From NCBI GenBank assembly GCA_020848745.1, contig JADLHM010000110.1:12688-76687 (forward strand): a DNA stretch of 64,000 nucleotides, written 5' to 3'. The DNA comes from Deltaproteobacteria bacterium. Lineage in GTDB: Bacteria; Desulfobacterota; Binatia; UTPRO1. Below are positions 25,129 to 44,997 of the stretch, piece by piece (position 1 is the first letter of the stretch; each line of letters opens with the position of its first letter). The notes beneath the pieces are model-generated. The model worked only from the letters and a program-made list of their open reading frames with translations, made no database searches and was not told where the DNA came from. The position numbers and the translations under genes were made by a program.

Positions 25129-25186
25129 TGTCGGTCACGTGGCGCGACCAGCGCCCCTTGCGGCGAATCCACGTGCGTGACGTCAT

Positions 25187-27149: not shown

Positions 27150-27808
27150 AGCTGATCGAGGAGCTCCGTGCCGAGCACGAGCTGATCGAAGCCGTCGTCG
27201 GGGCGCTCCGCACGTGGGTCGAGCGGTACCTGGCCGGCGCGGCTGGCGCGGACGATGGCCTGCGCTTCGTGCGTTTCTTCCGCGTCTACGCCGCCGGGCT
27301 CCACCACGGGCGCGAGGAGGATCTGCTGTTTCGCGCGCTCGTCGGCTCGGCGTGCCTGCCCGACGCAGGTCCGATCGCCGTGTTGCGCGACGATCACCGG
27401 CGGACCGACGTCGTGCTCTCGCGGATCGAAGCGCTGGTGTCGAGCGCGTCTCCGCTCGACGAGACGCGCGCTCACGAGCTGCGGTGCCGCGCCGTCGAGT
27501 ACTCGCACGCCTTGTGGCGGCACATCGACGCCGAGAACTCGGTGTTGTTTCCCGAGAGCGAGCCGCGCCTCCGGAGGGCCGGTGTCTTCGAGCTGCCGAC
27601 TCGCCCGCCGACCGTCGAGGAGGACGAGGCGCACGACCTCGGCCGCGCGCTCGTGGCCGCCTACCCGCCGCTCCACGACCCCGAGGTCGTGCGCGGCGAC
27701 GGCTGTGTCTGCTGCCCGGCCCTCGGCGAGAGCTGTCCCGGCCTTGAGCACGCGTGGTGGAGCGACTCGGAGTGGGAGGAGCTCGACGACCACCTCGGAG
27801 AGGGGTAG
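27146..27808 (+). CDS. hemerythrin-like domain protein with Cys-rich C-terminal tail
   Basis: GTG overlaps the radical SAM stop (GTGA). HHGREEDLLF and HIDAEN hemerythrin cation-binding motifs. C-terminal GDGCVCCPALGESCPGLEH. Confidence 0.7.
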   Translation: MKLIEELRAEHELIEAVVGALRTWVERYLAGAAGADDGLRFVRFFRVYAAGLHHGREEDLLFRALVGSACLPDAGPIAVLRDDHRRTDVVLSRIEALVSSASPLDETRAHELRCRAVEYSHALWRHIDAENSVLFPESEPRLRRAGVFELPTRPPTVEEDEAHDLGRALVAAYPPLHDPEVVRGDGCVCCPALGESCPGLEHAWWSDSEWEELDDHLGEG

Positions 27809-28095
27809 CGGCCCCGCCGCTCTTCACGATCGCGAGCCTTCAGGAGCCGGACCGTTCCTGCGGGAAGACGGCTTGCCGCCTCGGCCCGGCGGATGCCGTC
27901 CCCGCCCCGGCCGAACTCCCGGAAAACACTCCGAGAATGGGAATCGACGACCTTCGTCATGATGATCGCTGACGTTGGTCATAGGTGCATCACTAGCCCG
28001 TGCGTAGAGATGCCTCTAAGTATGGAGTCGTCTCTACGATTGTCGATGCCGGGGGCTCCGGGGCCCTGGCGCTCGAATCCATCGGAGGTGTCGCA

Positions 28096-28491
28096 ATGAC
28101 CGGAGGTGCCGCAATGACGTTGAGCCGGAACGCGGAAGCGGTGGCGCCGCCAGAGGCGCGCCCGACGGTGGTCGCCACCAAGCGCCTGTCCAGCAAGGAG
28201 GAGCCGCCCGGATCGGGCGAGGCCACCGGCTCCCGCGGCGCCATGCTGATGCGGTCGACCGGACTCGGGAAGGCGGAGCTCGTCGCCGAGATCGTCGGGC
28301 TGAGCCGCCAGGGTGACTACCTGATCATGGAGCTGCAGACCACCAAGCCGGTGCGATGGAAGATCCGCGGCGGTCTGAGCCACAAGGACCTGCGCATGCT
28401 CCTGCGGGCGATGATGAAGCGCTCCGTGATGTCGTTCCTGTTCAACGTCCGTGCGTGGTTCCGGGAGCCGGTACATCCAGGGGATTTCTGA
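28096..28491 (+). CDS. hypothetical small protein, translationally coupled to the first flavoenzyme of the array
   Basis: Two tandem copies of GGAGGTG-N5-ATG (ATGs at about 28096 and 28114) in frame with ORF 28000..28491. Stop overlaps the next gene's ATG as TGATG. No family recognised. Confidence 0.4.
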   Translation: MTGGAAMTLSRNAEAVAPPEARPTVVATKRLSSKEEPPGSGEATGSRGAMLMRSTGLGKAELVAEIVGLSRQGDYLIMELQTTKPVRWKIRGGLSHKDLRMLLRAMMKRSVMSFLFNVRAWFREPVHPGDF

Positions 28492-30209
28492 TGGCGGACC
28501 TGTCGTTCGACGCCGTCATCGTCGGGGGCGGTAACAAGGCGCTTCTGCTCGCGCTCTATCTCATCAAGTACGGCGGCATGAGCGTCGGCATCTTCGAACG
28601 GCGGCACGAGATCGGCGGTTGCTTGGCTACCGAGGAGCTCGCGGCTCCCGGCTTTCGCGGGAACACGCACGCGAACATCATCCTCCCCTGGTATTACGCG
28701 CCGATCTGGCGCGATTTCCCCCAGTTCTGGGACTACGGCGCGCAATGGGAGCAGCATACGTGCAGCGACGGATTCGTCTTCAAGGACAAGCAAAACTGCC
28801 TCGCGATCTACAGCGAGAAGCACGATCCCACGTGGGAGCGCACGGCGCAGGAAATCGCCCGCTTCTCGCAGCGGGACGCTGACACCTGGCGAAAGCTCCA
28901 CGCGATCTCCGAATCCGAGGAGTACAAGCGCGTGCTCATCGACTCGCTGTTCTTGCCGGCGGAAGACCGGCTCACCGGCGCCGTCGAGGAACGCAAGATG
29001 ATGATGTTCCCTGGGCTGATGGCCGCCGGCCTGGTTCCCGATTCTTTGTCCATGAAGGCGAGCGGCCTGCGCGCGGCCCAGGAATGGTTCGACAGCCCGG
29101 AGCTGCAGTCCTGCGTGCTGCGCTTCGCCGTGTCGTCCGTCATCGACATCAACGAGCCGGGCTTGGGCATGTACACGATGGGGATGGCGCTGACCCTGCC
29201 GACGATCGGCTTCAATCGCGGCGGCACGCATCAGATCGCGCACGCTGCCCATCAGATCCTCGTCCAGAGCGGATGCCGGTTCTTCACCAACGTGGAGGTG
29301 CAGCGCGCCGTCATCGAGAACGGGACGGTGACCGGCATCCGGCTCGCCGACGGCACCGAGGTCGCCGCCCGCAAGCTCGTGGTGAGCACGCTCTCGCCGC
29401 GGCAGCTGATCTTCGAGCTGATCGGCGAACAGCATTGCGACGCCACGTTGAAGAAGCGCGTCGACCTCCTGGATGACACGTTCGGCTGCCTGATGTGGTA
29501 CAGCTTCGCGGTTCACGAGGCGCCGTCGTACGAGGCCGAGCGCTTCAACCCCGACATCCACGAATGCCAGTGGCTGGGAATGCAGCCGGATCCCGACCCC
29601 ATGCACATCGCGCGCGAGTGCATGTACCAGAAGCTCGGGAAGTTCCCTCCGCTGGAGGATTATGCGCCCACGGTCGGCTGTCACAGCCTCGTGGATCCGG
29701 CCTTCGCGCCGCCCGGGAAGCACGTGGTGTTCAACGAGCAGCTCGGTCCGCCCGCCGGCGCGCACACCGAGAAGGAGTGGTTGGAGATCAAGAAGCGCTA
29801 TGCGGACGAGCTGATCGGCCTCTGGCAGGACTACGCACCGAACATGACCTGGGACAACGTGATCGGCGTCGACACGAACACGTCGTATGACCACAGGCGA
29901 ATGCGCAACCTGGGCATCAACGGAACGATGGCCGGCATCGATCGGTCCCCGTTCCAGATCGAAGAGAACCGTCCGACGCCGGAGCTCGCCAACCATCGCA
30001 CGCCCATCAAGAACCTCTACGCCACGGGCGGCGCGTGGCACGTCGGATCCAATGCCGGCTCGACCGAGGCGTACAACTGCTACCGCGTCATCGCCAAGGA
30101 CCTCGGGCTCGGGAAGCCGTGGGAGGAACCCGGCAAGGAAGAGCCCGATTCGCTCGTCGCGCAGCTCGCGATCGTGAAGCAGCGGGTACGGGAGGCGTGC
30201 CGCCGATAG
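28491..30209 (+). CDS. phytoene desaturase (CrtI/CrtD)-family FAD-dependent oxidoreductase, paralog A
   Basis: 572 aa from MADLSFDAVIVGGGNKALLLALYL (GxGxxG FAD fold, EIGGC). C-terminal NLYATGG FAD-binding motif. Real start inside ORF 28356..30209. Confidence 0.8.
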   Translation: MADLSFDAVIVGGGNKALLLALYLIKYGGMSVGIFERRHEIGGCLATEELAAPGFRGNTHANIILPWYYAPIWRDFPQFWDYGAQWEQHTCSDGFVFKDKQNCLAIYSEKHDPTWERTAQEIARFSQRDADTWRKLHAISESEEYKRVLIDSLFLPAEDRLTGAVEERKMMMFPGLMAAGLVPDSLSMKASGLRAAQEWFDSPELQSCVLRFAVSSVIDINEPGLGMYTMGMALTLPTIGFNRGGTHQIAHAAHQILVQSGCRFFTNVEVQRAVIENGTVTGIRLADGTEVAARKLVVSTLSPRQLIFELIGEQHCDATLKKRVDLLDDTFGCLMWYSFAVHEAPSYEAERFNPDIHECQWLGMQPDPDPMHIARECMYQKLGKFPPLEDYAPTVGCHSLVDPAFAPPGKHVVFNEQLGPPAGAHTEKEWLEIKKRYADELIGLWQDYAPNMTWDNVIGVDTNTSYDHRRMRNLGINGTMAGIDRSPFQIEENRPTPELANHRTPIKNLYATGGAWHVGSNAGSTEAYNCYRVIAKDLGLGKPWEEPGKEEPDSLVAQLAIVKQRVREACRR

Positions 30210-30235
30210 GCGTCGCCGCGGCGAAGGTCCGAGAC

Positions 30236-31861
30236 ATGACGCAGACCTACGACGTCATCATCATCGGCAGCGGACCCAATGGGCTCGCGATCGCCGCCTA
30301 TCTCAGCAAGGCCGGGCAGAAGGTTCTGTTGCTGGAGAAGCGCCACGAAGCCGGCGGCGGTCTCGCGACCGAACAGGTCACGATCCCCGACTTCTACCAC
30401 AACACGCACGCCGTCTACATGATGATGGTGGACTACGCGCCGGTGTACCGGGACTTCGGCTTCGAGGAGCGCGGCGTCCGACACATCTATCCGGAGCTGC
30501 AGGTGGCGCTGTCGCTCGCCGACGGCCGCGCGCTCGCGATCTACCGCGATCTCGAGCGGACCTGCGCGTCGATCGCCGCGTTCTCGAAGCGCGACGCGGA
30601 CAGCTACCGCGACATGCAGCGCGAGCACGGCGAGCTAATGGAGAACATCCTTGCGCCGCAGACCTACGTGCCGATGGATGCCGCGCCGCTGATGGCCGCC
30701 AAAGCGGAGCTGACGGAGCTCGGCCGCGTGCTGTCCGCGTACACCGACAAGACTCCCGAGGAGATCGTCTGCGAGCGGTTCGAGGACGAGCACGTCCGGA
30801 CCCTGATGCTCTACATGGCGTGTCATTGGGGTCTCGACTACGCGCAATCCGGCGTCAGCTACATGGTGCCGATCTATCTCGATCGGATGCGCCACTACCG
30901 CCTCACGGCGGGCGGGTCGCACCGGGCGGCGAGCGTGCTGCTCAGGGCGACCTTCGAGCACGGGGGACAGATCCGGACCACCGCTCAGATCCGGCGCATC
31001 ATCGTGGAGAACGGCGCCGCCACGGGCGTAGAGCTGGAGGATGGCACGCAGTTCCTCGCGGCCAAGGCGGTGGTGAGCACCATCGACCCCCATCAGACGT
31101 TCTTGAGGTACGTCGGGGAGGACGCGCTCGATCGCGAGTTCGTCGAGATGATCAATCTGTGGCAGTGGGAAAAGTGGAGCCTCTGCGTTCAGCATCTGGC
31201 GCTGGCCGAGCCGCCGCGATTCAAGGCCGCCGAGTCCTGCCCCGATCTCGATCGCGCCTTCATCCACGTCCTCGGCTACGAGAGCCTCGCCGATCTGAAG
31301 GGACACTGGGATGCCATGAGCGCGGGAACCCTGCCGGCCCAGGCGGGATTCAACTGCTGCTTCCCGAGCGTTCACGATCCGTATCAGGCGCCGCCCGGTC
31401 GCGCGTCGGGGTTGCTCTCGCAGATGGCGCCGTTCGAGCTCTGCGACGGCGGCTCGGAACGCTGGCTGAGCCACCGGTTTCGCGAGGAGGCGGCCGAGCG
31501 GCAGATCGGCGTCCTGCAGCGCTACGCCCCCAACGTCACCAGGGACAAGGTACTCTGGACCTACCTCACGACGCCCGCGGACATCGAGAACAAGTTCGCG
31601 AACATGGTGCGCGGGAGCTACAAGCAGGGGGCCTATCACCCGCTGCAGATGGGCTACCTCAGGCCGAATCAGGAGTGCTCGCAGTATCGCACGCCCGTGG
31701 AGAACCTCTATCTCGGCGGTGCGAGCGTCGCTCCCGGGGGCATGGTGCTCTTCGGGCCCGGCTACAACTGTGCCAACGCCATCGCCGAGGATTTCGGCAT
31801 CCAGAAATGGTGGACGGAGCCGGAGTACGTCACGGCGGCAAGAGAGAACGGGTACGTCTAA
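30236..31861 (+). CDS. phytoene desaturase-family FAD-dependent oxidoreductase, paralog B
   Basis: 541 aa from MTQTYDVIIIGSGPNGLAIAAYL...EAGGGLATE. Shares HNTHAVYMMMVDYAPVYRDFG and YRTPVENLY blocks with paralog D. Confidence 0.8.
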   Translation: MTQTYDVIIIGSGPNGLAIAAYLSKAGQKVLLLEKRHEAGGGLATEQVTIPDFYHNTHAVYMMMVDYAPVYRDFGFEERGVRHIYPELQVALSLADGRALAIYRDLERTCASIAAFSKRDADSYRDMQREHGELMENILAPQTYVPMDAAPLMAAKAELTELGRVLSAYTDKTPEEIVCERFEDEHVRTLMLYMACHWGLDYAQSGVSYMVPIYLDRMRHYRLTAGGSHRAASVLLRATFEHGGQIRTTAQIRRIIVENGAATGVELEDGTQFLAAKAVVSTIDPHQTFLRYVGEDALDREFVEMINLWQWEKWSLCVQHLALAEPPRFKAAESCPDLDRAFIHVLGYESLADLKGHWDAMSAGTLPAQAGFNCCFPSVHDPYQAPPGRASGLLSQMAPFELCDGGSERWLSHRFREEAAERQIGVLQRYAPNVTRDKVLWTYLTTPADIENKFANMVRGSYKQGAYHPLQMGYLRPNQECSQYRTPVENLYLGGASVAPGGMVLFGPGYNCANAIAEDFGIQKWWTEPEYVTAARENGYV

Positions 31862-31874
31862 TGCAGGAGCGTGT

Positions 31875-33596
31875 ATGAGCAAGGACGAGCGGTTCGACAT
31901 CGTCATCATCGGCGCCGGTCCCAACGGGATGGCGACGGCCGCCTATCTCGCCAAGTGCGGCCTCAGCGTGTGCGTGCTCGAGGAACGCACGGAATGCGGC
32001 GGGGCCTGCGAAACGCAGGAGCCGATCCCCGGCGTGCGCATCTATCCGCACGCGGTGCTGATGTACGCGTCGCCGGCGCCGGGATTCGATCAGCTGGAGC
32101 TGCACAAGTACGGCTTCCGCATGACCTGGTGGCCCGGATACGGCGCCAACGAAGATACCGCCGCGCTGGCATGCACCGACGGGTGGCGGCCGATTTCCGC
32201 CCAGGACAAGATGGGATGGGCGAAGATCGGCGGACTCCTCGGCTCACCGCCGTTCACGCGGGAGCTGATGCGCGCCACTTTCTGGTGTCCGCCGCATCCT
32301 CGCGGGGTCGAGGTCACGGACGACAACGTGCCGTACATGCAGGTGTACAAGCAGCACCAGCCCGACATGTACACGCACGAGCTCCGGGAGATGACGATGC
32401 TCGATCTCCTCGACGAGCACTGCGAGACCGAGCACTTCAAGGCCGCCATGGCCTTCGCGGCGTGGGCGTCCGGAGCCGCGGGCCACTGGGAAGGCGTCGC
32501 GATTCCGGCGGCGCTGTGCGTGCAACTCCTCACGATGCCGAACACCGGGCAGAACAGCATCCCGCGGGGCGGCCTGCACGGCTATTTCCACGCCATCCAT
32601 CGCGCCGCCGTGCACAAGGGGGCGGTCGTCCGGACGTGTTGTCCGGTCGAGGAGATCATCATCGAGGACGGGCGGGCCGTCGGCGTGCGGCTGCGCGAGA
32701 CCGCGGCGTGGGGCGGACGAACGATCCGCGCCAACAAGGCCGTGATCGCGGCGATCGACGTGCACCAGGCCTTCCTCAAGATGATCGGCCCACGGCACCT
32801 GGACCCCGGGTTCATCCAGAAGATCCGGGACATCAGCCTGAAGAACCAGACCCTCTACGTGTCCGTCTTCCACACCAAGACGCAGCTGCGATTGAAGCCG
32901 ACGTGGGCCCGGGACGAACGCGTGACGGGACCCAACAAACAGCCGTTCCTCGGCATCTACCCCTGCGACTCGCGCGAGATCTACTACGAGAACGTCGCCG
33001 ACGTGGACGGCCGCAAGGGACAACCGACGGTACCTCCGGAGCGTGCGATGTGGTTCCAGGCGCCGCCGCAGAACTTCGATCCGACCGACTGCCAGGCGAA
33101 CTACCCGCCCTCACGCGGCTACATTTCGCAATCGTACGAGATGGCGGTCACGTCACCCGACTACCATCAAGAAGGGGAAGACGCGCCGGACAAGTACAAG
33201 GCCGAGATGGATGCGTACATGCGGAAGTCCTACGGCCAGATGCTGGACGGCCTCGAGGACGACAACGTCATCCACCATTGGAGTGCCACCGGTCGCGACG
33301 TGGAGTTCCGTAACTCCGGCATCATCGGCGGTACGTGGTGCGGCAGTCGCCACGACGAGGACCAGCTGTGGACGAATCGACCGATCCCCGAGTTGGCGCG
33401 CTACCGGACGCCGATCGAGGGGCTCTATCACGCGCATCAGACCTCGGGGCACCCCGGCGGGCTCTGCCTCATGGCCATTCCCTACAACCTGATGCACATC
33501 CTCATCGAGGACGGCATCGCCGAGCCTGGTGACTGGTGGTACGCGTCGCCCTGGTACATTCCGGAGCAGGGCAAGATTTCCGCGCGCCGCGGCTGA
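31875..33596 (+). CDS. phytoene desaturase-family FAD-dependent oxidoreductase, paralog C
   Basis: 573 aa from MSKDERFDIVIIGAGPNGMATAAYL with AGGAGC RBS. C-terminal YRTPIEGLY. Most divergent of the A-D group. Confidence 0.8.
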   Translation: MSKDERFDIVIIGAGPNGMATAAYLAKCGLSVCVLEERTECGGACETQEPIPGVRIYPHAVLMYASPAPGFDQLELHKYGFRMTWWPGYGANEDTAALACTDGWRPISAQDKMGWAKIGGLLGSPPFTRELMRATFWCPPHPRGVEVTDDNVPYMQVYKQHQPDMYTHELREMTMLDLLDEHCETEHFKAAMAFAAWASGAAGHWEGVAIPAALCVQLLTMPNTGQNSIPRGGLHGYFHAIHRAAVHKGAVVRTCCPVEEIIIEDGRAVGVRLRETAAWGGRTIRANKAVIAAIDVHQAFLKMIGPRHLDPGFIQKIRDISLKNQTLYVSVFHTKTQLRLKPTWARDERVTGPNKQPFLGIYPCDSREIYYENVADVDGRKGQPTVPPERAMWFQAPPQNFDPTDCQANYPPSRGYISQSYEMAVTSPDYHQEGEDAPDKYKAEMDAYMRKSYGQMLDGLEDDNVIHHWSATGRDVEFRNSGIIGGTWCGSRHDEDQLWTNRPIPELARYRTPIEGLYHAHQTSGHPGGLCLMAIPYNLMHILIEDGIAEPGDWWYASPWYIPEQGKISARRG

Positions 33597-33620
33597 CGCT
33601 CGAGAAGGACGAGGCCGACG

Positions 33621-35303
33621 ATGCCAAATTTCAAGTACACCTCCGAGTTCACCTTCGACCCGAGCAATCCCTTCGGGCACATGCAGGAAGAGTTTCCGCG
33701 GGAGAGCGAGTTCGACGTCGTAATCATCGGCGCCGGTCCCAACGGTCTCATCGCCGGCGCCTACCTCGCCCGGGCGGGCCTGAGCGTCGCCGTCTGCGAG
33801 CGTCGCTTCGAGGCGGGTGGCGGTCTGGCCACCGAGGAGAACCTCTACCCCTGCTACTCCTCCAACCCGCACGTGCTCTACCACATGATGGTGGACTACA
33901 TGCCGGCGATCCGGGACTTCGAGCTCGAAGCGCCCGCGGTGACGTGGATCAAGCCCAATCGCCAGACGGGGATGCTGTTCGAAGACGGCTCCTCCGTGCT
34001 CCTGGCCCGCATGACCCAGGACACCAAGGATTCGATCAGCAAGTATTCCTTCAAGGACGCCGGCACCTTCGGCCGGGTGATTCGCGATTGGCGGCGGATC
34101 GTCGACGACATCATCGCGCCCGCCACCTACATCCCGCCCATGGCGCCGATCGAGATCACCATGGCCATGCAACGCACCAAGGTCGGGCAGCAGATGCTGG
34201 AGCTCGGGGAGCTGAGCCCGTTGCAGCTCATCACGGAGACCTTCGAGCACGACAAGGTCCGTGCCCTGATGCTGTACGCGACCTGCATGTGGGGACTCGA
34301 CCCGCGCGAGACCGGCCTCGGCTTCATGGTTCCGCTCATGCTCGATCGCGCCATGAACAAGTGTTACTGCTACGGCGGCTCCCACAAGTTCGGGAGCGCG
34401 CTGGCGCGACAGGTCGTAAAGTACGGCGGCGTGATCCTCGACGCCGCCACCGTCGACCGGATCATCGTCGAGAACGGCCGCGCGGTCGGCGTGCACATCG
34501 TGCACGAGGATCGCGTGCTGCGAGCCAAGGCGGTGATGTCCACGCTGGACCCGCATACGACGTTCCTCGACATGGTCGGCGAGGCGGCGCTGCCGACATC
34601 GCTCCGGGACGCGGTGAAGGGGTGGGCGTGGGACAAGTGGAGCTTCAACACCCTCCACATCGCGGCCGACGAGGCGCCCAAGTACGTCACCGACGATCCG
34701 TGGATCAACGAGGCGTTCGCCACCGTCGTCGGCATCGAGGGCGTCGAAAGCCTGCTCACCCACTGGGACAACGTCACGCAGGGCAGGCTCGACCTGAACA
34801 ACTTCGGCGGCCACTCGACCTGCGAGAGCCTGTTCGATCCCACGCTGAGCGACCGTCCGGGAAAATTCGTCTCGATGTTCCAGATCCATGCGCCCTACGG
34901 GCTCGAGGGCGGCTGGGTGAATCGTCGCGACGAGATCAAGGCGGCCATGCTCGCCAAGTGGCAGAAGGCGGCGCCCAATCTCGCCGGCACGATCATCAGC
35001 ACGGCGATGGAGGACCCCGAGGAAATCGAGATCCGCTTTCCGAACATGCGGCGCGGGTCGATCAAGCACGGCGACTATCGGCCCTTGCAGATGGGGTGCT
35101 ACCGGCCCAATCAAGAGTGCTCGAGCACCGCCACGCCGATCGAAGGCCTCTACGTTTGCGGGGTCTCGACCTATCCCGGAGGCCTCGTCCTCGGTGGTCC
35201 GGGGTATCTCGGTGCCAACCGTGTGGCGGAGGATCTCGGCGTCCCGAAGTGGTGGAAGCCGACCCCGGTCATGGAACGGTACATCAAGACGTACCTCGAA
35301 TGA
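33621..35303 (+). CDS. phytoene desaturase-family FAD-dependent oxidoreductase, paralog D
   Basis: 560 aa. FDVVIIGAGPNGLIAGAYL...EAGGGLATEE. HVLYHMMVDYMPAIRDFE. C-terminal ATPIEGLYVCG. Confidence 0.8.
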   Translation: MPNFKYTSEFTFDPSNPFGHMQEEFPRESEFDVVIIGAGPNGLIAGAYLARAGLSVAVCERRFEAGGGLATEENLYPCYSSNPHVLYHMMVDYMPAIRDFELEAPAVTWIKPNRQTGMLFEDGSSVLLARMTQDTKDSISKYSFKDAGTFGRVIRDWRRIVDDIIAPATYIPPMAPIEITMAMQRTKVGQQMLELGELSPLQLITETFEHDKVRALMLYATCMWGLDPRETGLGFMVPLMLDRAMNKCYCYGGSHKFGSALARQVVKYGGVILDAATVDRIIVENGRAVGVHIVHEDRVLRAKAVMSTLDPHTTFLDMVGEAALPTSLRDAVKGWAWDKWSFNTLHIAADEAPKYVTDDPWINEAFATVVGIEGVESLLTHWDNVTQGRLDLNNFGGHSTCESLFDPTLSDRPGKFVSMFQIHAPYGLEGGWVNRRDEIKAAMLAKWQKAAPNLAGTIISTAMEDPEEIEIRFPNMRRGSIKHGDYRPLQMGCYRPNQECSSTATPIEGLYVCGVSTYPGGLVLGGPGYLGANRVAEDLGVPKWWKPTPVMERYIKTYLE

Positions 35304-35743
35304 TGGATTCCACGGAGCGGACATCCCTTGCGGCGCAATTCGAGCGCCACGCGGACGAAGAGGGGAAGATCCTGGCGGAGTATCGCGTCCTCGCCGAGAA
35401 GCTCGGAAGCGGCGCCGCGGGGAACCTCGTGAGCCACATCTTGACCGAAGAGGAGCTCCATCACCTCCTCTTGCGGACCCTGGCGACGTGGCTGCGTGCG
35501 GCCCCCGCGGAGCACGCGCGCGCGATTCCACCGGAGGCCGATCGTGCCGAGTTGCTCCGCCTGACGAAGCTCCTCCGCAAGCACGAGCTCGAGACCATCG
35601 AGGCGTGCCGCGACACCCAGGCGCGATTGGCTGGTGCCGGCGACGACGGCGCAATCGTCGGCATCTTGCTGGAGGCCATGACCATGGATAGCGAGAAGCA
35701 CCATCGGTTGCTCGGCGCCGTGGAGCGGATGCTGACGAGCTGA
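35303..35743 (+). CDS. small ferritin-like four-helix-bundle protein with duplicated E..EExHH motifs (putative diiron protein)
   Basis: 146 aa from MDSTERT. ATG overlaps the paralog D stop (TGATG). Two repeats: AEYRVLAEKL...TEEELHH and ETIEACRD...DSEKHH. C-terminal part of artefactual ORF 33536..35743. Confidence 0.55.
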   Translation: MDSTERTSLAAQFERHADEEGKILAEYRVLAEKLGSGAAGNLVSHILTEEELHHLLLRTLATWLRAAPAEHARAIPPEADRAELLRLTKLLRKHELETIEACRDTQARLAGAGDDGAIVGILLEAMTMDSEKHHRLLGAVERMLTS

Positions 35744-35755
35744 GGAGATCCGCCA

Positions 35756-37237
35756 ATGGATGCACGGCACTACGACGCGATCGTGATCGGGAGCGGCCCC
35801 GGTGGCCTTTCGTGTGCGACGCTCCTCCAGAAGCGAGGCATCGCCACCCTGTTGGTCGAGAAGAACGGCTTCCTCGGCGGCAAGATGGTGAGCGTCAAGA
35901 AGGACGGCTACGCCTACGACCTCTTTCCTCACGGGCAGGTCCCCATGCGCCAGCCCGCCTTCGAGTCGATCTTCGTAGAGCTCGGTGTCGGTGACGAGTT
36001 CCGGCCGGCGCTGCAGCCCGACGACACGCGGGACGTCATCAAGATCTGCTACCGCCGCCGGGACTGGAAGGACTACAAGCTCGCCGCGCAGTCGCAGGCG
36101 ATGACCGACGCCACCCCGTTCTTTCGGCTGTGGGAGATCGACGAAGAGGCCCAGCAAAAGGTCGTCGCGATCATGGCCGAGATCGCGACGATGCCCGACG
36201 AGCAGGTCGATACGCTCGACGGCGTCAGCATGCACGAGTTCCTGGCGCGCCGCGACACGCCGGAGGCGCTCTACAGCTACATGGCGTTTCACGCCAACGC
36301 GTCGCTTGCCGAGCCGATCGATCTCGTGGCGGCATCGGAGCAGATTCGCATCCTCAAGCAGATCATGCTGCAGGGAGGAGGCGGCCAATACAAAGGCGGC
36401 TTCGGCTTGCTCACCGACGTCATGGCGCGCGAGTTCGAAAAGAACGGCGGTGTCATCGTCCGCAGCGCCAAGGTCGAGAAGATCATCGTCGAGGACGGCG
36501 CCGTCACCGGCGTGACGACGACGAAGGGGACGTTCGCGGCACGGGTCGTGGTGAGCAGCGCCGGCATCCAGCCGACGGTCCTGAAGCTGGTCGACGCGCA
36601 GCACTTCGATCGCAGCTACCTGAACTACATCAAGGGACTGGCTCCCGGCTGGGGATTCACCAGCATCCGCTACTTCCTGAACAAGCCCGTCATGGACGTA
36701 CCCATGTACGTCGCCTACTCGGACGACAGTTGGTGGAACATGGAGCGCTTCCGGCGCGTCAAGGAGGGTCGGATTCCCGACGAGGTGATCCTCTTCATGT
36801 GCAACCACTCTTTCTACGACGAAGAGGCGGCGCCGCCCGGCAAGCAGGTCCTGGTTTCCGGGACCATCTGCTCACCCAATCCCGAAGCCGAGGAGATCGC
36901 GGGATTGTGGAAGCGCATGGACGAGCAGATGGTGAAGTTCTTTCCGGAGATCTGGAACGCGATCGAACGCAAGGAGTACGCCGGGCCGCGCGACATCAGC
37001 AAGATGACCCGCGACGGCGTGCTCCCCGGTCAGGGCGGCGAGTGCGTCGGCCTCGGGCAGATCGTCGGCCAGTGCGGCAAGATGAAGCCCGACCCGGCCG
37101 CACCCATTCGCGGCCTCTACTACGCGGGAGCCGATGCCGGTGGTGCCGGTATGGGCACGCATCAGGCGGCCTGTTCGGGGATCGAGGTGGCGCGGTTGGT
37201 CGGACACTTTCTCAACAAGCTCCACAAGACCCAGTAA
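35756..37237 (+). CDS. phytoene desaturase-family FAD-dependent oxidoreductase, paralog F
   Basis: 493 aa. MDARHYDAIVIGSGPGGLSCATLL...FLGGK. C-terminal GLGQIVGQCG...GLYYAGADAGG shared with paralog G. Confidence 0.8.
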   Translation: MDARHYDAIVIGSGPGGLSCATLLQKRGIATLLVEKNGFLGGKMVSVKKDGYAYDLFPHGQVPMRQPAFESIFVELGVGDEFRPALQPDDTRDVIKICYRRRDWKDYKLAAQSQAMTDATPFFRLWEIDEEAQQKVVAIMAEIATMPDEQVDTLDGVSMHEFLARRDTPEALYSYMAFHANASLAEPIDLVAASEQIRILKQIMLQGGGGQYKGGFGLLTDVMAREFEKNGGVIVRSAKVEKIIVEDGAVTGVTTTKGTFAARVVVSSAGIQPTVLKLVDAQHFDRSYLNYIKGLAPGWGFTSIRYFLNKPVMDVPMYVAYSDDSWWNMERFRRVKEGRIPDEVILFMCNHSFYDEEAAPPGKQVLVSGTICSPNPEAEEIAGLWKRMDEQMVKFFPEIWNAIERKEYAGPRDISKMTRDGVLPGQGGECVGLGQIVGQCGKMKPDPAAPIRGLYYAGADAGGAGMGTHQAACSGIEVARLVGHFLNKLHKTQ

Positions 37238-37271
37238 TCCCGTTCGGATTGCGAACAGAGCGAGGTGTGAG

Positions 37272-38744
37272 ATGGCAGAGACATCGTACGACGTGATCGT
37301 GATCGGAGCGGGCTTCGGCGGCAGTGCGTGCGCCGGTCTGCTGGCAAAGCGCGGGCTCCGGGTCCTCCTCGTCGAGAAGAACGCCAGGGCCGGCGGCAAG
37401 GCGATGAGCCTCAGCAAGCACGGCTTCACCTACACCGCGTGGGTCGTCATCGGCGCCCCGGTGATCGGCAACCTCTACGAGGCCGTAGCGAAGGAGCTCG
37501 GCGTGGAGGATCTCGTCCAACTGGTCACGCCCGGCGCTCCCGCGAGCCTCTACAAAACCTCGTCGGGCGCGTACACGCGGGTGCCCGACATGCCCGTCGG
37601 ACAGACCGACCCGATGCAGATCTTCGACTGGCTCGAGGTCGCGCCCGCCGATCGGGATGCGGCCCTGATGTTCTTCGCCGGACTGACGATGATGCCGCCC
37701 GAGGAGATCGCGAAACTCCACGGCGTCAGCTTCCAGGACTGGATCGAACGTCAGCACATTCCGCGTTCGCTCTACGCGTTCCTGGTGAGCAATTGCTGCG
37801 ACGGCATGTTCATGGTGCCGGTCGACCAACTGGATGCGGCGGAGGCCATCGCGAGCCTGCAGGACATGTTTCTCCGGCACGGAGGCATGTTCTGTCGAGG
37901 CGGCTTCGGCCGTGTCGCCGAGGCGTATTGCGAGGCGGTGCGCCGCTTCGGCGGCACCGTGCTGATGAAGACCAAGACCGAACGCATCCTCGTGGAGGAC
38001 GGCGCGGTCGCCGGGGTCGTCACCAGCGCCGGGACGTTCCGCGCCCCGATCGTCATCAGCAACGCCGGCCTGCAGCCGACGGTCCTGAGATTGCTCGGCG
38101 AGCGAGACTGTCCGCCCGAATACCGGGAATACGTCGAGCGTCTGGTCCCCTCGTGGTCGCTGCTCGGGTATCGCTATTTCCTGCGCCGACCGGTGATCGA
38201 TGCCGCGTTCGGCGTGGTGTTCTCGGACACCAGCCCGTGGACTCTCGATCGGCTCGAGAAGGCGCATGCCGGCCAGGCCTCACGTGAAGGCGTCGTCTAC
38301 TTCGAGGTTCCATCGAACTACGATCCGGAAGCGGCTCCCGCCGGCAAGCAGATGGTGCTGACGGGCTCCTTCTGCCCGCCGAGTCCGCAGATGACGCGCG
38401 CGGAGATCGAGGCCTGGGCCCAGGCCGGGGAGGACGTGATCTTCAAGGCGTTCCCCGCGCTGGAAGACGCCATCGAGGAGAAGGAGCTCTACACGCCGAA
38501 GGACGTCTCCAACCTCACGCGCGAGTCCGCGATCCATGGCCACGGCGGCGAGACCATCGGCCTCGGGCAGATCGTCGGCCAGTGCGGGCCGAGCAAGCCG
38601 TCCATCCAGGCTCCGGTTCGCGGCCTGTTCGTCGTCGGCTGCGACGCCGGTGGAAGTGGCGTCGGGACGCAGCAGGCGATCGCCTCGGGGAGGAACGTCG
38701 CTGAGGCCGTGTTCCGCCACCATCACGCGTCGCGGGCCGCGTGA
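37272..38744 (+). CDS. phytoene desaturase-family FAD-dependent oxidoreductase, paralog G
   Basis: 490 aa from MAETSYDVIVIGAGFGGSACAGLL (GAGGTG RBS). C-terminal GLGQIVGQCG...GLFVVGCDAGG. Start inside ORF 37134..38744. Confidence 0.8.
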   Translation: MAETSYDVIVIGAGFGGSACAGLLAKRGLRVLLVEKNARAGGKAMSLSKHGFTYTAWVVIGAPVIGNLYEAVAKELGVEDLVQLVTPGAPASLYKTSSGAYTRVPDMPVGQTDPMQIFDWLEVAPADRDAALMFFAGLTMMPPEEIAKLHGVSFQDWIERQHIPRSLYAFLVSNCCDGMFMVPVDQLDAAEAIASLQDMFLRHGGMFCRGGFGRVAEAYCEAVRRFGGTVLMKTKTERILVEDGAVAGVVTSAGTFRAPIVISNAGLQPTVLRLLGERDCPPEYREYVERLVPSWSLLGYRYFLRRPVIDAAFGVVFSDTSPWTLDRLEKAHAGQASREGVVYFEVPSNYDPEAAPAGKQMVLTGSFCPPSPQMTRAEIEAWAQAGEDVIFKAFPALEDAIEEKELYTPKDVSNLTRESAIHGHGGETIGLGQIVGQCGPSKPSIQAPVRGLFVVGCDAGGSGVGTQQAIASGRNVAEAVFRHHHASRAA

Positions 38745-38809
38745 TGGTCCGGCGCGATGGTCAATCCACCGGCACGGGCTTCGGGCTCACCGTTCTCCAG
38801 CCGCCACGT

Positions 38810-38847
38810 CAGTGCCGACGCCGCTGGTCACAGCAACGTCGGCACTG
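38810..38847. terminator. bidirectional stem-loop between convergent genes
   Basis: Perfect 11-bp inverted repeat CAGTGCCGACG-N16-CGTCGGCACTG, 65 nt after the paralog G stop, spanning the stop codon of the minus-strand secreted protein gene. Confidence 0.35.
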
Positions 38848-39745
38848 GCGGTAGCAGGTAACCGGTGCCGAAGGTCCCGAGTGCTTCGGCGAAGAAGATC
38901 AGCCGGGTCGCGCGCGGGGGAAAGACGAACGAGGTGAAGCGGATGCTGCCGCTCGAGCCGCCGACGTCGGCGCCCACGACCGTCGCGAGGTTGGTCACCA
39001 CGACGCCCGTCGCCGTGAATCCGGTGTCGGCGATCGTGGATCCGTCGGCGCCCGCGGCGAAGACGTTCCAGTCCGTCGCGCCGACCTGCGCGCGGAGCGG
39101 CAGGCCCGAGACATCCTCGAAGTTCACGAAGATGAGCTGGTCGCCCCCGAGATCCGAGGAGGCGAGATCGTCCGGGTTGTAATAGGCGGAGAGATCGAGG
39201 CCACTCGGGAGGATCGGCCGCAGCGAGACCATCTGGTTGTCGATGGTGGCGCCGAAGTCGGGAAAGCTGTCGTCGGCGTTCACGGCCGAGCGCGCCGCGG
39301 CGGGGGCGCCCCACGCCGAGCCGGTCGCGAGATTCGCGACCGTGAAGTTGCCGGTGAGGGCGGCGCTCACGATGGCCGTCCCGACCTCGTTCACGCCGGT
39401 TGCGAAGGCGGCGCCGGCCTGCGCGGGGAGACCGCTCGCGCGCAGCTCGCCGACGTCGAGCACGCGGAGCCCGAACGCGGGCAGGGTGATCGTGTGGGCG
39501 AACGGCACACCGTCGAAGCCGGGCGCGTAGAAGAGCACCGTGACCGTCAACTCGCCCGGCATGACGTTCCGCACGGTGAGAAACGTGGTGAAGTTCTCTC
39601 GCGCGTCGTAGTAGAAGACCAGCTGGTCGCCCTGGGTATCGGGCCGCTCGAGCGCCGCCGGCGCTGGAGGGATGAATGCTTCGACCTGCGAGGTCCATCC
39701 CAGGAGCCACCACGCCACGAGGGCCAACACCGTCCGTCTCCGCAT
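38828..39745 (-). CDS. secreted hypothetical protein (Gly/Ala/Thr-rich, signal peptide)
   Basis: ORF 38828..39820 trimmed to MRRRTVLALVAWWLLGWTSQVEA (signal peptide) with GGAGG RBS. No family recognised. Confidence 0.5.
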   Translation of the reverse strand: MRRRTVLALVAWWLLGWTSQVEAFIPPAPAALERPDTQGDQLVFYYDARENFTTFLTVRNVMPGELTVTVLFYAPGFDGVPFAHTITLPAFGLRVLDVGELRASGLPAQAGAAFATGVNEVGTAIVSAALTGNFTVANLATGSAWGAPAAARSAVNADDSFPDFGATIDNQMVSLRPILPSGLDLSAYYNPDDLASSDLGGDQLIFVNFEDVSGLPLRAQVGATDWNVFAAGADGSTIADTGFTATGVVVTNLATVVGADVGGSSGSIRFTSFVFPPRATRLIFFAEALGTFGTGYLLPPVPTLL

Positions 39746-40185
39746 ACCGCCTCCTCGCCGATGGAGTGTCCGTGAAGCGCCCCCGCTGCCGTCGCCGGGC
39801 GGCTGCGGACACGCCTTCACGGATCTCGAACAGCCCTAACCGAGCACGTCCCCGGCGTCTAGTGAGATGAGGTCCATCATGCTTCGGGCTGACGTTCTTC
39901 GCGATGGCGGCGATGCTCTTTCGGCTCACCCCGAGTGCGAGTAGAGCCACAAGCCAAACAAGGCCGCGCTCAGGAGCACCAAGGCCTCACAGCAAGCGAT
40001 GAAGACGATGAGGCGCTCCCCCGTCCGGGCCTTCGGTTCGTCCGGATCGAGCAGGAAGCCGCGTTCCGTACGCTCGACTCCGAACCAACGCGACCATCGG
40101 CTTCCCGCCATGCCGCGGTCCTACCCGGAGCCGCCGACGGAATCCGCGGCGCGGACGTCCACGCCGTACGTCGGCGCGAGCCGCT

Positions 40186-40740
40186 TCACCGCTGCGCGGC
40201 GGCCGACGCCTGCAGGCCCGACGCCGGCTCGTAGGCGAGCACCTCGACCAGGAGGACCCGCCGGCGGGTCGTGCCGACGGTCCGGCGATAGCGGACGAGC
40301 CGCCCCGTTTCGGGGTCGAACTCGGCGCGCAGGTCGACCGCCGGCGTGTCGCCGACCGCCTCGATGGTCGTCCAGCGGAGATCGGTCTGTAGCAGGTCGA
40401 AGATCCCCTGGACCGAGTAGTCGTCGCGCTCCCGGTCGGCGCCGCCGACCGGGTGGCCGTCGCGGGTGCGCTTCACGAGGGTGCCGCCCGCCACCTCGAT
40501 CTCCCATACCTCCACCGGAGCGCGTGGCGGCCGCACCCGCACGACCGCGCGATAGGAGCTGGAACCGTGCGCCTGCCAGCGCTGGCGGGCCGCCGCCAGC
40601 GACGCCTCGGTCAACGGCTCCATCGGGGGCGGCCCGAGCAGTGAGCAGCCGGCGAGCAGCAGCAGGACGGCTCCCCATGCCGTCCTTGCCCGCCGGCTGG
40701 TCGTCGCGTGACCAGGGCGTGCCGTGCCTGAGTCGGTCAC
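40186..40740 (-). CDS. hypothetical lipoprotein
   Basis: 184-aa ORF with signal plus LLAGCS lipobox. No family recognised. Confidence 0.45.
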   Translation of the reverse strand: MTDSGTARPGHATTSRRARTAWGAVLLLLAGCSLLGPPPMEPLTEASLAAARQRWQAHGSSSYRAVVRVRPPRAPVEVWEIEVAGGTLVKRTRDGHPVGGADRERDDYSVQGIFDLLQTDLRWTTIEAVGDTPAVDLRAEFDPETGRLVRYRRTVGTTRRRVLLVEVLAYEPASGLQASAAAQR

Positions 40741-40760
40741 GCGAACCTCCTTACTTCACT

Positions 40761-43175
40761 TCAGGACGTCAGGGCGTGCTCGATCTCTTCCTCGTGGGCG
40801 GCCCAGTCCTTCTCGTAGACCGTCCATTCGCCTTCCTCGAGCTCGAGCTCACGAACGAGCACGCGGCCCCTCGACAGGATGAACCAGAGGAGAGGCAGGA
40901 CGCCGCCGAAGAGGAAGATGACCCCTCCGATCGTGCGCAGCCAGGTCAACTTCACCCACACGGGGCCGGTCACGAAGTCGTTGGTCCGGGCGTACCAGAA
41001 CCCGTGCGTCACGACCGCCGCCATCTGATACAGACCGACGGGAAACAGATCGAGCACCATCATCAGCACGAGTCCAGCCTGGAGCGACCAGAAACTCGTC
41101 CGGAGGAGCTTCTCGTTCCAGGCGGCGCGCGGGAACAAGTGCTGGCAGCAGAACAGTACGCCAGCCAGGGCGATGTTGCCCTTCACCCCGAACATCGCGG
41201 CGTGGGCATGATTGTGCGTCAGGTACGTCCCGTGCTCGAAGTAGTTCACGATCGGAAGGTTGATCAATGAGCCGAAGACCCCCGCGCCGACGATGTTCCA
41301 GAAGTTGCATGCGAGGATGAACAGCCACACGCCTTCCATCACGAATTTCTGCTTCCCTTGGGCCCTGTGCTCGCCCGCCCGGAGCTTCTCGTTCCGCATG
41401 CGCCACGCGTCCAGCGTCATCAGCAGGAGGGGCAGCACCTGCATGGTGGAGAAGACGCTCCCGAGCGCGATGATGCCCGTCGGCTTGGCGATCCAGTAGA
41501 AGTTGTGGGAAATGCCGACGATCGCCGTGATCAGAAACATCATCACGGCCAAGAAGATGACCCGTTCCGCCATGGAGCGGTTCAACAGTCCCATCTGCAC
41601 GAGCAGATAGGCGACGATGCAGGTCGTGAACACCTCGAACGTGACCTCGACCCACATGTGCACGGTCATCCAGCGCCAGTAGTCCGTGATGGCGAAGTTC
41701 CCGCTCGGCGTCGCGCCGAGCCCGAAGAACAGGAACAACACCATGATGCCGCTGCCGTAGAACAGCCATGCTGGCACCGACCACATGTTCTGCTTCGTGA
41801 TCCACGGCCGCACGCCCCGGTAGATGATCGCGATCCAGAGTACGAACGAGGCGAGCATCAGGATGTGCCAGAAGCGGCCGAGCTCCATGAACTCCCAGCC
41901 CTGGCTCCCGAGCCAGTACGACGCGGTGTCGCTCATGTATCCCATGTGTCCGAAATAGATGCCGAACAGCGCGCCGGCGCCGACGATCACGCAGAGCGCG
42001 AACAGCAAATTGATCAAGAAGCGCTGCCCGTTCGGTACGCGCGAGAGCCGCGGCAAGAAGAAAATCGTGTAGCCGACCCAGCACATGAAGAACCAGTAGA
42101 TCTGCAGGATCGTGTGCCACGCTCTGGTCACCGTGAAGGAGAAGGGGACGCCGAGAACCTTGACGATCGCCGTCCCGGGTCCGCCGCTGACGAAGTCCTC
42201 GGCGCTCAGGATGCCGGCGAGGACCTGGGCCAGGAAGAGGATCACGGCGAACGCGAAGAACTTGTAGGTGGCGCGTTGCGTGGGTCGAACGAACTCGTAG
42301 CCGCGCTCCAGCTCCGCGGTCGTCAGCGTTCCGCCGTTGGCGCCGTTGAACGGATCGCCGGGCAACTCCTTCATCTGGCCGTAGACGTAGAGCACCAGCA
42401 TCGCCCCCGCGAACAGCACCAGGATCGACAGGAAGCTCCACATCACGGTCGGCGTGGTCGGCACGTTCCCGGCGTCGGGATCGTACGGCCAGTTGTGCGT
42501 GTAGCTGTAGGGCTCACCCGGCCGCTTGGCGCCGGAGACCCAGCCGCCCCAGAAGAAGTATGCGGAGAGCGCCCGCAGGTCGTTCGGGTCGGTGATGTAG
42601 TTCGCCAACCGGAACTTCGCCGGATACGTCGGGTCCGTGAACACCCGCGCATAGTGCGTCTGCAGATCCTGATACGCGCGGATCTGGGCGTCGTTGATGC
42701 GGATGACGCCCGCGGCCTCGTCGTAGCCGTTCTCCTTGATCTCGCGCTGCACCCGCACCGCGATCGCGTCGCGGTCGGTTTGGCTCGAGGTGCCGCCGCT
42801 CGCCGCTTGGGCCTCGTAGAACGACCGCATGGAGACGACCGTGTGGTGCAGGGCCTCGGCGGTGAAGTCCGGTCCCCGTTCCGCGCCGTCGCCCCAGAAC
42901 GATCCCCAGGACATCAGGCCGCGGATGTGGAACAGCTCCTGTCCGCGCAGGATGTCGGAGAGCGGGATCACCTCCTTGCCGGTGCTGGCCGACACGAACG
43001 GAACGCGCGGCGGAGCGCTGCCGTACGTCCAGGTGCCGAGAGCGATCAACCCGAGCAGGCTGACCGCGGTGACGATCGCGAATTGGGTCAGCCAATTCGG
43101 CTTGGCGAGCATCCATTTGCCGAGGTTCTGCCTCGTCCGGGAGTTTCGGGTGCGTGCTTTCACGTCAGTGTGCAT
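40761..43175 (-). CDS. norZ: quinol-dependent nitric oxide reductase (qNOR, NorZ-type, large single subunit)
   Basis: 804 aa. N-terminal TM plus periplasmic domain fused to a 12-helix heme-copper oxidase core. Conserved His ligands including HNHAHAAMFGVKGN and GHMGYM. Start may be the internal Met (MLAKPNW). Confidence 0.85.
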   Translation of the reverse strand: MHTDVKARTRNSRTRQNLGKWMLAKPNWLTQFAIVTAVSLLGLIALGTWTYGSAPPRVPFVSASTGKEVIPLSDILRGQELFHIRGLMSWGSFWGDGAERGPDFTAEALHHTVVSMRSFYEAQAASGGTSSQTDRDAIAVRVQREIKENGYDEAAGVIRINDAQIRAYQDLQTHYARVFTDPTYPAKFRLANYITDPNDLRALSAYFFWGGWVSGAKRPGEPYSYTHNWPYDPDAGNVPTTPTVMWSFLSILVLFAGAMLVLYVYGQMKELPGDPFNGANGGTLTTAELERGYEFVRPTQRATYKFFAFAVILFLAQVLAGILSAEDFVSGGPGTAIVKVLGVPFSFTVTRAWHTILQIYWFFMCWVGYTIFFLPRLSRVPNGQRFLINLLFALCVIVGAGALFGIYFGHMGYMSDTASYWLGSQGWEFMELGRFWHILMLASFVLWIAIIYRGVRPWITKQNMWSVPAWLFYGSGIMVLFLFFGLGATPSGNFAITDYWRWMTVHMWVEVTFEVFTTCIVAYLLVQMGLLNRSMAERVIFLAVMMFLITAIVGISHNFYWIAKPTGIIALGSVFSTMQVLPLLLMTLDAWRMRNEKLRAGEHRAQGKQKFVMEGVWLFILACNFWNIVGAGVFGSLINLPIVNYFEHGTYLTHNHAHAAMFGVKGNIALAGVLFCCQHLFPRAAWNEKLLRTSFWSLQAGLVLMMVLDLFPVGLYQMAAVVTHGFWYARTNDFVTGPVWVKLTWLRTIGGVIFLFGGVLPLLWFILSRGRVLVRELELEEGEWTVYEKDWAAHEEEIEHALTS

Positions 43176-43214
43176 GTGATGATCCTCCTCACGTGTGCGT
43201 CACTGTGGCGGGGC

Positions 43215-43667
43215 TCACGACGCGAACGCCGTGGGCACCTCGGCGGCGCCGTTGAAGAAGCGCTGCAGGCTCTGGTTGTACCGATAGAAGGCGTCTACCT
43301 CGAGTTGATCCGGTCCGCTGACGCGCATCGGATCGTCGGGGAACGTCAGGTAGTTGAGCGTGTGCGTGAGGTCGGGCCCGGCGTTGGCGCGGATGTTCTC
43401 GATCATCTCGCGCCAGGTCTCGAGCGAGGCCTCGAGCACGAAATGCTCGGACGTCGCTTCCTTCAGGTTGGCCAGCTTCCGCACCGAGGATGTCTTGAAG
43501 CCGTCGAACCCGACCTCGTAGAGCTGCGTGCCCGCGGGAGCCTCGACCTGGACCACCATCGTGCACTCGAGGGGGCCGAGTTCGCGGTACCCTGCTTCGT
43601 CCTGGTCCATGCGGCGCGCGAGCGCCTCGAACCACTGCGTCGACGGAAACAGCGTCGTGTCGGTCAT
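43215..43667 (-). CDS. hypothetical protein (SCP2/sterol-carrier-like?)
   Basis: 150-aa acidic soluble protein MTDTTLFPSTQWFEALARRMDQDE.... Between the diiron protein gene and norZ. Assignment tentative. Confidence 0.45.
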   Translation of the reverse strand: MTDTTLFPSTQWFEALARRMDQDEAGYRELGPLECTMVVQVEAPAGTQLYEVGFDGFKTSSVRKLANLKEATSEHFVLEASLETWREMIENIRANAGPDLTHTLNYLTFPDDPMRVSGPDQLEVDAFYRYNQSLQRFFNGAAEVPTAFAS

Positions 43668-43681
43668 GGGATGGTCTCCTC

Positions 43682-44785: not shown

Positions 44786-44997
44786 CGTGGCCTCCTGTTA
44801 GTGTGTGCGTTGACCGCCGCCGCGGCGCGCCGCCGCGAGAGCAGGATGTCTGCAGGGTCCAGCGTACGGATCACTGTGCAGCCTTCCTACCGGTTGGACG
44901 GCTGCGCGGGATGACGTCGGTCATGGTTCACGATGACGCATCGCCACGGGGTGGCCGACACGGGGCAAGGAGGACTCCGTGGCGGTCCGTGGTCAGG

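Follow-up and report, generated by a model that had tools for sequence, protein, structure and literature searches.

Delta24-steroid desaturase (delta24-SD) and the limonene dehydrogenase CtmAB are heterodimeric CrtI-like enzymes that carry flavin mononucleotide (FMN) covalently on a histidine (PMC11061730). Their flavinylation motif reads G-F-[LR]-x-[NS]-[TL]-H-A, and their alpha and beta subunits are ~26-27% identical (PMC11061730). Both enzymes rely on a flavin semiquinone or on acceptors of high potential; the acceptor that they use in nature is a ferredoxin or is not known (PMC11061730; PMC4109377). Here we describe a small gene, referred to as S in the rest of the text, that lies in an operon of predicted flavoenzymes of this type (28243-38744) in a Deltaproteobacteria bacterium assigned to the Binatia. 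The operon is part of a 64,000-nucleotide stretch of contig JADLHM010000110.1 (positions 12,688 to 76,687 of the forward strand), hereafter called the window. S (35303..35743, + strand) codes for a predicted ferritin-like four-helix-bundle protein. For convenience, we named its flavoenzyme neighbours A to F and the small open reading frame (ORF) leading the operon u82.

Like the CtmABEF and delta24-SD systems, the operon codes for paired, ~30%-identical CrtI-like subunits of ~60 kDa with an N-terminal His motif, and its enzymes would likewise need an external electron acceptor. The described systems differ in that they contain no ferritin-like gene, and Ctm uses a 2Fe-2S ferredoxin together with its reductase. 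The host operon, in contrast, carries two to five flavoenzyme pairs, the CrtI-like genes E and F, u82 and, in one clade, S. A search of the literature retrieved no relevant work on this operon.

Gene S and its predicted fold

S codes for a protein of 146 aa (MDSTERTS...ERMLTS; 16.1 kDa, pI 5.6). A prediction previously made by a model from the sequence alone (the original prediction) had proposed an ORF of this length coupled through TGATG to the flavoenzyme gene D, and both the ORF and the overlap were found at 35303. The stop/start overlap consists of ATGATG (35300..35305, + strand) across the TGA codon of D (35301-35303). Initiation at the ATG at 35303 gives TGATG with the stop codon of D, and initiation at the alternative in-frame ATG at 35300 gives a classic ATGA overlap, an arrangement that would allow translational coupling. 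A 1-nt overlap between D and S recurs in locus L004. Since the other orthologous loci carry gaps of 25-52 nt, coupling of D and S by overlap is not universal. Downstream, E starts 12 nt past the stop codon of S and its start is preceded by GGAG.

The guanine-plus-cytosine (GC) content of S by codon position (0.71/0.45/0.86) is like that of genuine genes of this ~70% GC window. Upstream of the S ATG, the same frame has a non-coding-like pattern (0.90/0.59/0.45), and codon-position GC thereby ruled out a longer, 735-aa reading frame for S. The ratio of nonsynonymous to synonymous substitution rates (dN/dS) of 0.15-0.28 against nine orthologues indicates that S evolves under purifying selection. 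A database search returned at least 168 homologue clusters of 143-155 aa, all from uncultured bacteria and one of them identical to S; no Pfam domain was found in these 168 clusters. Together, codon-position GC, dN/dS and the homologue clusters indicate that S is a real, conserved gene.

An AlphaFold2 model of S, built on a 32-sequence alignment, reached a predicted local distance difference test (pLDDT) score of 94 and a predicted template-modelling (pTM) score of 0.82. The model predicts four helices of 28-33 residues each (residues 3-34, 38-65, 81-108 and 113-145), of which the second and third (helices B and C) are joined by a 15-residue linker holding a 5-residue turn. We compared the two halves of the protein (residues 1-72 and 76-146) using hhalign. 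They aligned with a probability of 95% and an E value of 2e-8 when the 120-sequence alignment described below was used, and with 32% and 5e-4 when only close homologues were used, indicating that the halves are homologous and that the internal helix-loop-helix duplication is real. A two-fold repeat had been proposed in the original prediction from the strings AEYRVLAEKL...TEEELHH and ETIEACRD...DSEKHH, both of which are found in the translation, and is thus borne out.

Searching 1.84 billion representatives with a profile yielded 387 relatives of S, and 120 of these, 22-81% identical to S, were aligned. The Pfam Rubrerythrin family (PF02915) was matched by 75 of the 120 relatives at E ≤ 0.01 (best E 5e-12), and three individually checked relatives of S exceeded the gathering score of PF02915; the Pfam Ferritin family (PF00210) was matched by 38/120. 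Searched against the PDB, the profile of the 120 relatives found 9viw, a 306-aa bacterioferritin entry (4e-10), and designed diiron proteins (6e-10), as well as EncC, bacterioferritins and symerythrin, the ferritin-like chains spanning 4e-10 to 8e-4. Approximately half of the top 50 matches of the S model in Foldseek, all non-significant, were also ferritin-like (MiaE, bacterioferritins, DPSL, sulerythrin and rubrerythrin). Because the relatives and their profile match the ferritin-like superfamily and S alone does not, the placement of S is transitive. On the basis of the predicted fold and this transitive homology, we assign S as a minimal four-helix bundle of the ferritin/rubrerythrin superfamily. 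The ferritin-like bundle anticipated from the sequence thus agrees with structure prediction and with the Rubrerythrin matches of the relatives, as does its supposed lack of an obvious annotation with the finding that no Pfam or NCBIfam model reaches threshold for S.

An asymmetric pattern at the putative metal site

Residue conservation, counted over the 120 aligned relatives, differs between the halves (all coordinates on the + strand). Half 1 (helices A and B; 35309..35497) has by sequence a canonical diiron half-site made of E20 (35360-62; conserved in 118/120), the second-shell residue Y27 (35381-83; 119/120) and E50-x-x-H53 (35450-61; 118/120 for E50 and 120/120 for H53), and it aligns to the E...Y...ExxH pattern of designed diiron proteins and of a bacterioferritin. 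Two further histidines are conserved, H16 (35348-50; 114/120) and H54 (35462-64; 115/120). H54 flanks H53 and, judging from heptad phase, H16 lies one core layer from the site. Half 2 (helices C and D; 35543..35737) looks like a degenerate half-site, with E95 (35585-87; 120/120) and the stretch D129-S130-E131-K132-H133 (35687-35701), in which D129, K132 and H133 are conserved in 119, 118 and 119 of the 120 relatives, respectively. Position 130 is serine in 79 relatives and threonine in 38 (117/120 Ser/Thr), and H134, the second histidine of DSEKHH, is variable. The profile of half 2 aligns DSeKH onto the DEEKH of DF1-type designed diiron proteins. In this alignment and in the half-to-half register given by hhalign, Ser130 sits at the position of the second bridging Glu, and E95 and H133 fall on ligand positions. 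D129 and K132 align with the positions of the second-shell Asp/Lys pair of DF1.

Since the bridging Glu of the second half is replaced by Ser/Thr in 117/120 relatives, the site is not the classical set of four Glu and two His; what the S family offers at canonical positions, according to the alignments, is three carboxylates and two histidines. The original prediction had seen duplicated EExHH motifs with the ligand layout of a minimal diiron bundle. Of the two E...ExxH ligand sets that such a layout implies, the first (E20, E50 and H53) is present in S and the second is not: its motif reads D-S-E-K-H-H, with Ser130 at the Glu position. From heptad phase, the conserved residues are expected to lie on core-facing stripes with a spacing of 3-4 (16/20/27, 50/53/57, 91/95/98/102 and 126/130/133/137). 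Another set of residues, H94, T98, C102 (35606-08), E51, E131 and W63, is invariant only in the close subfamily of S; among these, C102 occupies the half-2 equivalent of Tyr27.

Several known proteins resemble S in part. Rubrerythrin/erythrin-type proteins (PF02915; COG1633-like proteins, symerythrin and sulerythrin) share with it four long helices derived from a duplicated helix-loop-helix in ~140-170 aa, a first half with Glu, Glu-x-x-His and a second-shell Tyr, and the Glu of helix 3 and His of helix 4. S differs from them in the Ser/Thr that replaces the second bridging Glu, in His16 and His54 and in the subfamily-specific His94 and Cys102, and its genomic setting is new for proteins of this type. 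It differs further from true rubrerythrin in that it ends after helix D at residue 146, has C102 as its sole cysteine and contains neither a rubredoxin Cys4 domain nor any other domain. The best residue-by-residue matches of S are the DF1/DFsc proteins (PDB 1ec5, 2hz8 and 2lfd). In DF1 numbering, E20/Y27/E50/H53 of S align with E10/Y17/E36/H39, and D129/K132/H133 with D35/K38/H39; at the position of Ser130, in contrast, the DF proteins have Glu. Because the DF proteins are artificial, idealised from natural diiron sites, this match reflects a common consensus and not descent.

The manganese catalases of Lactobacillus and Thermus have three Glu and two His ligands, a single bridging carboxylate and solvent bridges, an arrangement that suits peroxide chemistry. 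Their resemblance to S concerns ligand count only and implies no membership: they are about twice as long as S, and the Mn catalase family PF05067 was matched neither by S nor by any of the 120 relatives. Bacterioferritin and ferritin (PF00210) belong to the same superfamily as S, several bacterioferritins being matched by the family profile. S differs from bacterioferritin in having no fifth helix, E51 where bacterioferritin has its heme-ligand Met, and a different ligand set. S did not match hemerythrin (PF01814), and the hemerythrin domains that were found are separate from it (one encoded at 26264-27808, one the fusion partner of the relative P0231). These comparisons indicate that the S family is an uncharacterised ferritin-like branch of a known superfamily and not an orphan fold, its new features being the altered site and the setting.

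Occurrence of S in the flavoenzyme operon

A scan seeded with S and limited to one genome per species yielded 20 loci, all from metagenome-assembled genomes (MAGs) labelled Binatia, Myxococcales, Deltaproteobacteria, Gemmatimonadetes, Rokubacteria, Desulfurellales or Deferrimicrobiaceae. S lies inside the operon at 14 of these 20 species-level loci, and further metagenome loci are alike. The usual order is u82-A-B-C-D-(C'-D')-S-E/F, with up to five flavoenzyme pairs, and it recurs in at least 14 independent loci. A scan seeded with D covered 74 metagenome loci and found S in only 9 of them. We had considered that S might be universal in such operons; this was rejected by the D-seeded scan together with a search of the same loci using a hidden Markov model (HMM). 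S is a clade-restricted, optional accessory, always found at the same operon junction, and not a universal subunit. The co-occurrence of S homologues with flavoenzyme arrays, proposed earlier as a check, thus holds when counted from S but not when counted from D. The related idea that S is a partner of the array fared similarly: the linkage is indeed conserved across many MAGs, but most related operons are without S and lone copies of S exist.

Two further loci, L006 (8221-10432) and L096 (7502-9284), contain decayed operons in which fragments of C and D lie upstream of an intact S. They share the same S sequence, 58% identical to that of the window, and S appears to have been retained there after loss of the flavoenzymes. 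In two loci of Binatia type, L005 (11943-17658) and L008, a block is inserted between E and F that comprises genes for a BcrAD/BadFG activator, two HGD-D (2-hydroxyacyl-CoA dehydratase-like) proteins, CdhC, CbiA and CobW. The content of this insert hints at ATP-driven reductive chemistry tied to the same pathway.

In the window, all genes of the operon lie on the + strand with gaps of -1 to 34 nt, and there is no excess of promoter- or terminator-like sites within it. It is headed by u82 (28243-28491), a small conserved ORF of 82 aa that matches no family in Pfam or NCBIfam; its stop codon and the start codon of A overlap (TGATG), and its relatives, 51-82% identical, lie beside A in most related loci. 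The flavoenzyme genes A (28491-30209), B (30236-31861), C (31875-33596) and D (33621-35303; a 560-aa beta-type subunit) carry the motifs GFRGNTHA, DFYHNTHA, GVRIYPHA and CYSSNPHV, respectively. Downstream of S, the CrtI-family genes E (35756-37237; 493 aa) and F (37272-38744; 490 aa) are without a flavinylation motif. Pairwise identity is 31% for A/B, 31% for C/D, 42% for B/D and 39% for E/F.

The best NCBIfam match of A to D is a CrtO-type ketolase, far under its cutoff (for D, 183 bits against a cutoff of 1000), and no closely related solved structure was found for A or D. The histidine that aligns with the covalent-FMN His of CtmAB and delta24-SD is kept in A, B, C and D, and the full motif is found only in A. 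Compared by published motif and pairing, A to D are predicted to be closer to the CtmAB/delta24-desaturase type than to carotenoid CrtI, which amends the original description of the array beside S as CrtI-family. Family scans found no ferredoxin, electron transfer flavoprotein (ETF) or cytochrome gene inside the operon. The operon is widespread in uncultured bacteria and unusually well conserved: across MAGs assigned to different phyla, A to D share 77-93% identity and vary less than S.

Possible roles of S

When clustered at 50% identity, the wider S family amounts to ~390 clusters, every one from uncultured bacteria of soil, sediment or groundwater. Its ~170-aa members are automatically named rubrerythrin or bacterioferritin by JGI, and hypothetical or ferritin-like domain-containing protein by NCBI. 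Four relatives are fused behind tandem universal stress protein (Usp) domains and one, P0231, to a hemerythrin domain. Three long contigs (L102-L104, with the relatives P0314, P0323 and P0304) represent about two independent contexts, in which the neighbouring genes code for Usp, HSP20, a ribosome hibernation factor, a DksA-type zinc finger, CBS and DoxX proteins, as well as PFK, GAPDH and a zeta-toxin/AAA_33 kinase-like protein. These islands resemble a dormancy or hypoxia regulon. Fusions and neighbours together suggest that the parent family of S acts in stress or dormancy.

We tentatively favour, at somewhat less than even confidence, the interpretation that S is a small cytoplasmic dimetal protein of stress type that handles O2 or peroxide and was recruited as an accessory of the operon; we infer its metal binding, the identity of the metal and its role from the patterns described above. 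The buried site of such a protein would be asymmetric, with E20 and E50-x-x-H53 contributed by half 1, E95 and H133 by half 2, and the conserved Ser/Thr standing in for the second bridging Glu. E50, and probably solvent, would bridge two ions of Fe or Mn, and H16 and H54 would lie beside the site, H16 possibly acting as an acid-base group. The Glu-to-Ser/Thr change would leave open coordination positions on the binuclear centre that would suit reaction with H2O2, O2 and perhaps NO. One subfamily of the stress or dormancy parent would have been recruited, in one operon lineage, between CtmAB-like and CrtI-like subunits. There, S would be accessory or protective, clearing peroxide or oxygen or using peroxide as an electron sink, and the flavoenzymes that it protects would carry reduced or radical (semiquinone) flavins that are oxidant-sensitive or oxidant-producing.

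A number of observations weigh against this interpretation. Searched by itself, S found nothing above threshold in Pfam (only a sub-threshold PadR-type C-terminal domain, E 0.017), no match in NCBIfam and only chance matches to RubisCO among PDB sequences (phmmer), and its model had no significant match in the PDB (Foldseek). As one canonical ligand is missing, a mononuclear site, or one that binds no metal, is also conceivable. Peroxidases of the rubrerythrin type depend on an electron-donor domain, and S is without one. The evidence from stress islands amounts to about two independent contexts and five fusions only. At 6 of the 20 species-level loci, S has no flavoenzyme nearby; its unrelated neighbours there include an ABC-3 metal transporter, an acyl-CoA dehydrogenase, a carboxylesterase with IlvD, and an IclR regulator. 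At 17 of the 74 D-seeded loci, D runs straight into F, and ~20 more of these loci with sufficient downstream sequence have neither S nor a direct D-F junction, by our reading of the same classification. A broad-family HMM run over all ORFs of the D-seeded loci detected no divergent S. Since most related operons are without S, any role of S is dispensable for the flavoenzymes.

The same distribution bears on the idea that S is a dedicated electron acceptor or mini terminal oxidase that passes flavin electrons from A/B and C/D to O2, H2O2 or NO, as PTOX/AOX does after plant phytoene desaturase. This idea is appealing inasmuch as the natural acceptor of enzymes of the CtmAB/delta24-SD type is either unknown or a ferredoxin absent from this operon, where genes for ETF and cytochrome are missing too. 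It would also fit the overlap of the S start with the D stop, the fixed position of S between D-type and E/F-type genes, and the subfamily-invariant residues W63, H94 and C102, which are absent from the broad family. However, because most related operons have no S or S-like gene, their flavoenzymes must have another acceptor, and lone S copies away from flavoenzyme genes retain every subfamily-specific residue. We had considered W63, H94 and C102 as a docking surface for the flavoenzymes, a proposal left unsupported by this retention. Four-helix dimetal proteins of the size of S are not known to serve as electron carriers. On balance, we regard a dedicated acceptor as unlikely. The more specific proposal that S is the missing oxidant-coupling partner of a CtmAB/delta24-desaturase-type system, a soluble mini-oxidase of 16 kDa whose dimetal site has three Glu and two His (plus two further His) and through which electrons from covalent-flavin allylic dehydrogenases would reach O2, H2O2 or NO, seems to us rather unlikely as well.

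Three further explanations were considered. Iron storage or ferroxidase activity, with S as the subunit of a mini-ferritin, bacterioferritin or Dps-like cage, or as an iron buffer unrelated to the flavoenzymes, would account for the match of the family profile to bacterioferritins and encapsulated-ferritin cargo, for the 38/120 relatives that match Pfam Ferritin, some of them called bacterioferritin by JGI, and for the lone S that adjoins an ABC-3 metal transporter. Asymmetric, ligand-poor sites are also typical of ferritin ferroxidase centres. Even so, the AlphaFold2 model has no fifth C-terminal helix as found in 24-mer ferritins, and the family occurs in stress islands and a catabolic-type operon, not in iron-uptake regulons. 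The characterised relatives of the flavoenzymes are iron-free (PMC11061730), with no obvious local need for iron, and we consider this role improbable. A sensor or regulator whose metal site binds O2, NO or a redox signal, like hemerythrin-type sensors, and which would modulate the operon or a stress response, seems still less probable. The fusions of relatives to hemerythrin in one case and to Usp domains in others, the weak match to a PadR-type C-terminal domain and the position of the operon between genes for NnrS, a hemerythrin-domain protein and a quinol-type nitric oxide reductase (qNOR), the latter found nearby again in L004, would all agree with it, but neither a DNA-binding domain nor an output domain for signalling is present in S, the PadR match is sub-threshold and the NO-related neighbours are limited to this lineage. 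Finally, S could be a non-metal structural or assembly factor, either a scaffold or a flavinylation helper analogous to SdhE. Large hetero-oligomers with histidyl-linked FMN are predicted for its neighbours, and S is small and helical, with a gene that overlaps the stop of a subunit gene. Against this, the near-invariant residues are exactly those at ferritin-type ligand positions, S does not resemble SdhE-type factors, neither S-less operons nor the characterised CtmAB and delta24-SD require it, and relatives of S occur where there are no flavoenzymes, so that a purely structural role is very improbable.

The NO-related genes flank the operon on both sides (23842-27808 on the + strand and 40761-43199 on the - strand). 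Upstream, on the + strand, are the genes for NnrS (23842-25128), a luciferase-like monooxygenase (25181-26221) and a 514-aa ORF with a hemerythrin HHE domain at residues 297-430 (26264-27808). Downstream, on the - strand, lies the gene for the single-subunit quinol-type NorB, or qNOR (40761-43199). The close relative L004 also has a luciferase-like gene, a DUF6174-like gene and NorB nearby. A link between S and nitric oxide metabolism through these neighbours was rejected, as they are seen only in this lineage. The region 28000-44000, which covers the operon, two genes of unknown function, a DUF6174-like gene and the qNOR gene, has ~65% GC compared to 70-75% on either side and could be an island acquired by horizontal transfer. 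A gene for a 371-aa protein (43682-44797, - strand) separates the qNOR gene from one for a pyruvate-formate-lyase-like glycyl radical enzyme (44998-47628). With its weak, sub-threshold matches to DUF455, AurF and the ribonucleotide reductase small chain, this protein could represent another ferritin-like diiron protein, larger than S.

The replacement of Glu by Ser/Thr together with the extra histidines makes the S family a natural example in which to study how the reactivity of a dimetal site changes when a ligand is lost. In addition, S marks one clade of a large, highly conserved operon of limonene-dehydrogenase-like flavoenzymes. If S is merely protective, it would be an ordinary stress protein in an unusual location. 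If it couples the flavoenzymes to oxygen species, it would address the acceptor question for this class of enzymes, and if it is indeed a mini-oxidase, the operon would provide uncultured Binatia- and Myxococcota-like bacteria with an oxygen-tolerant way of activating hydrocarbons or isoprenoids, a chemistry that is otherwise anaerobic.

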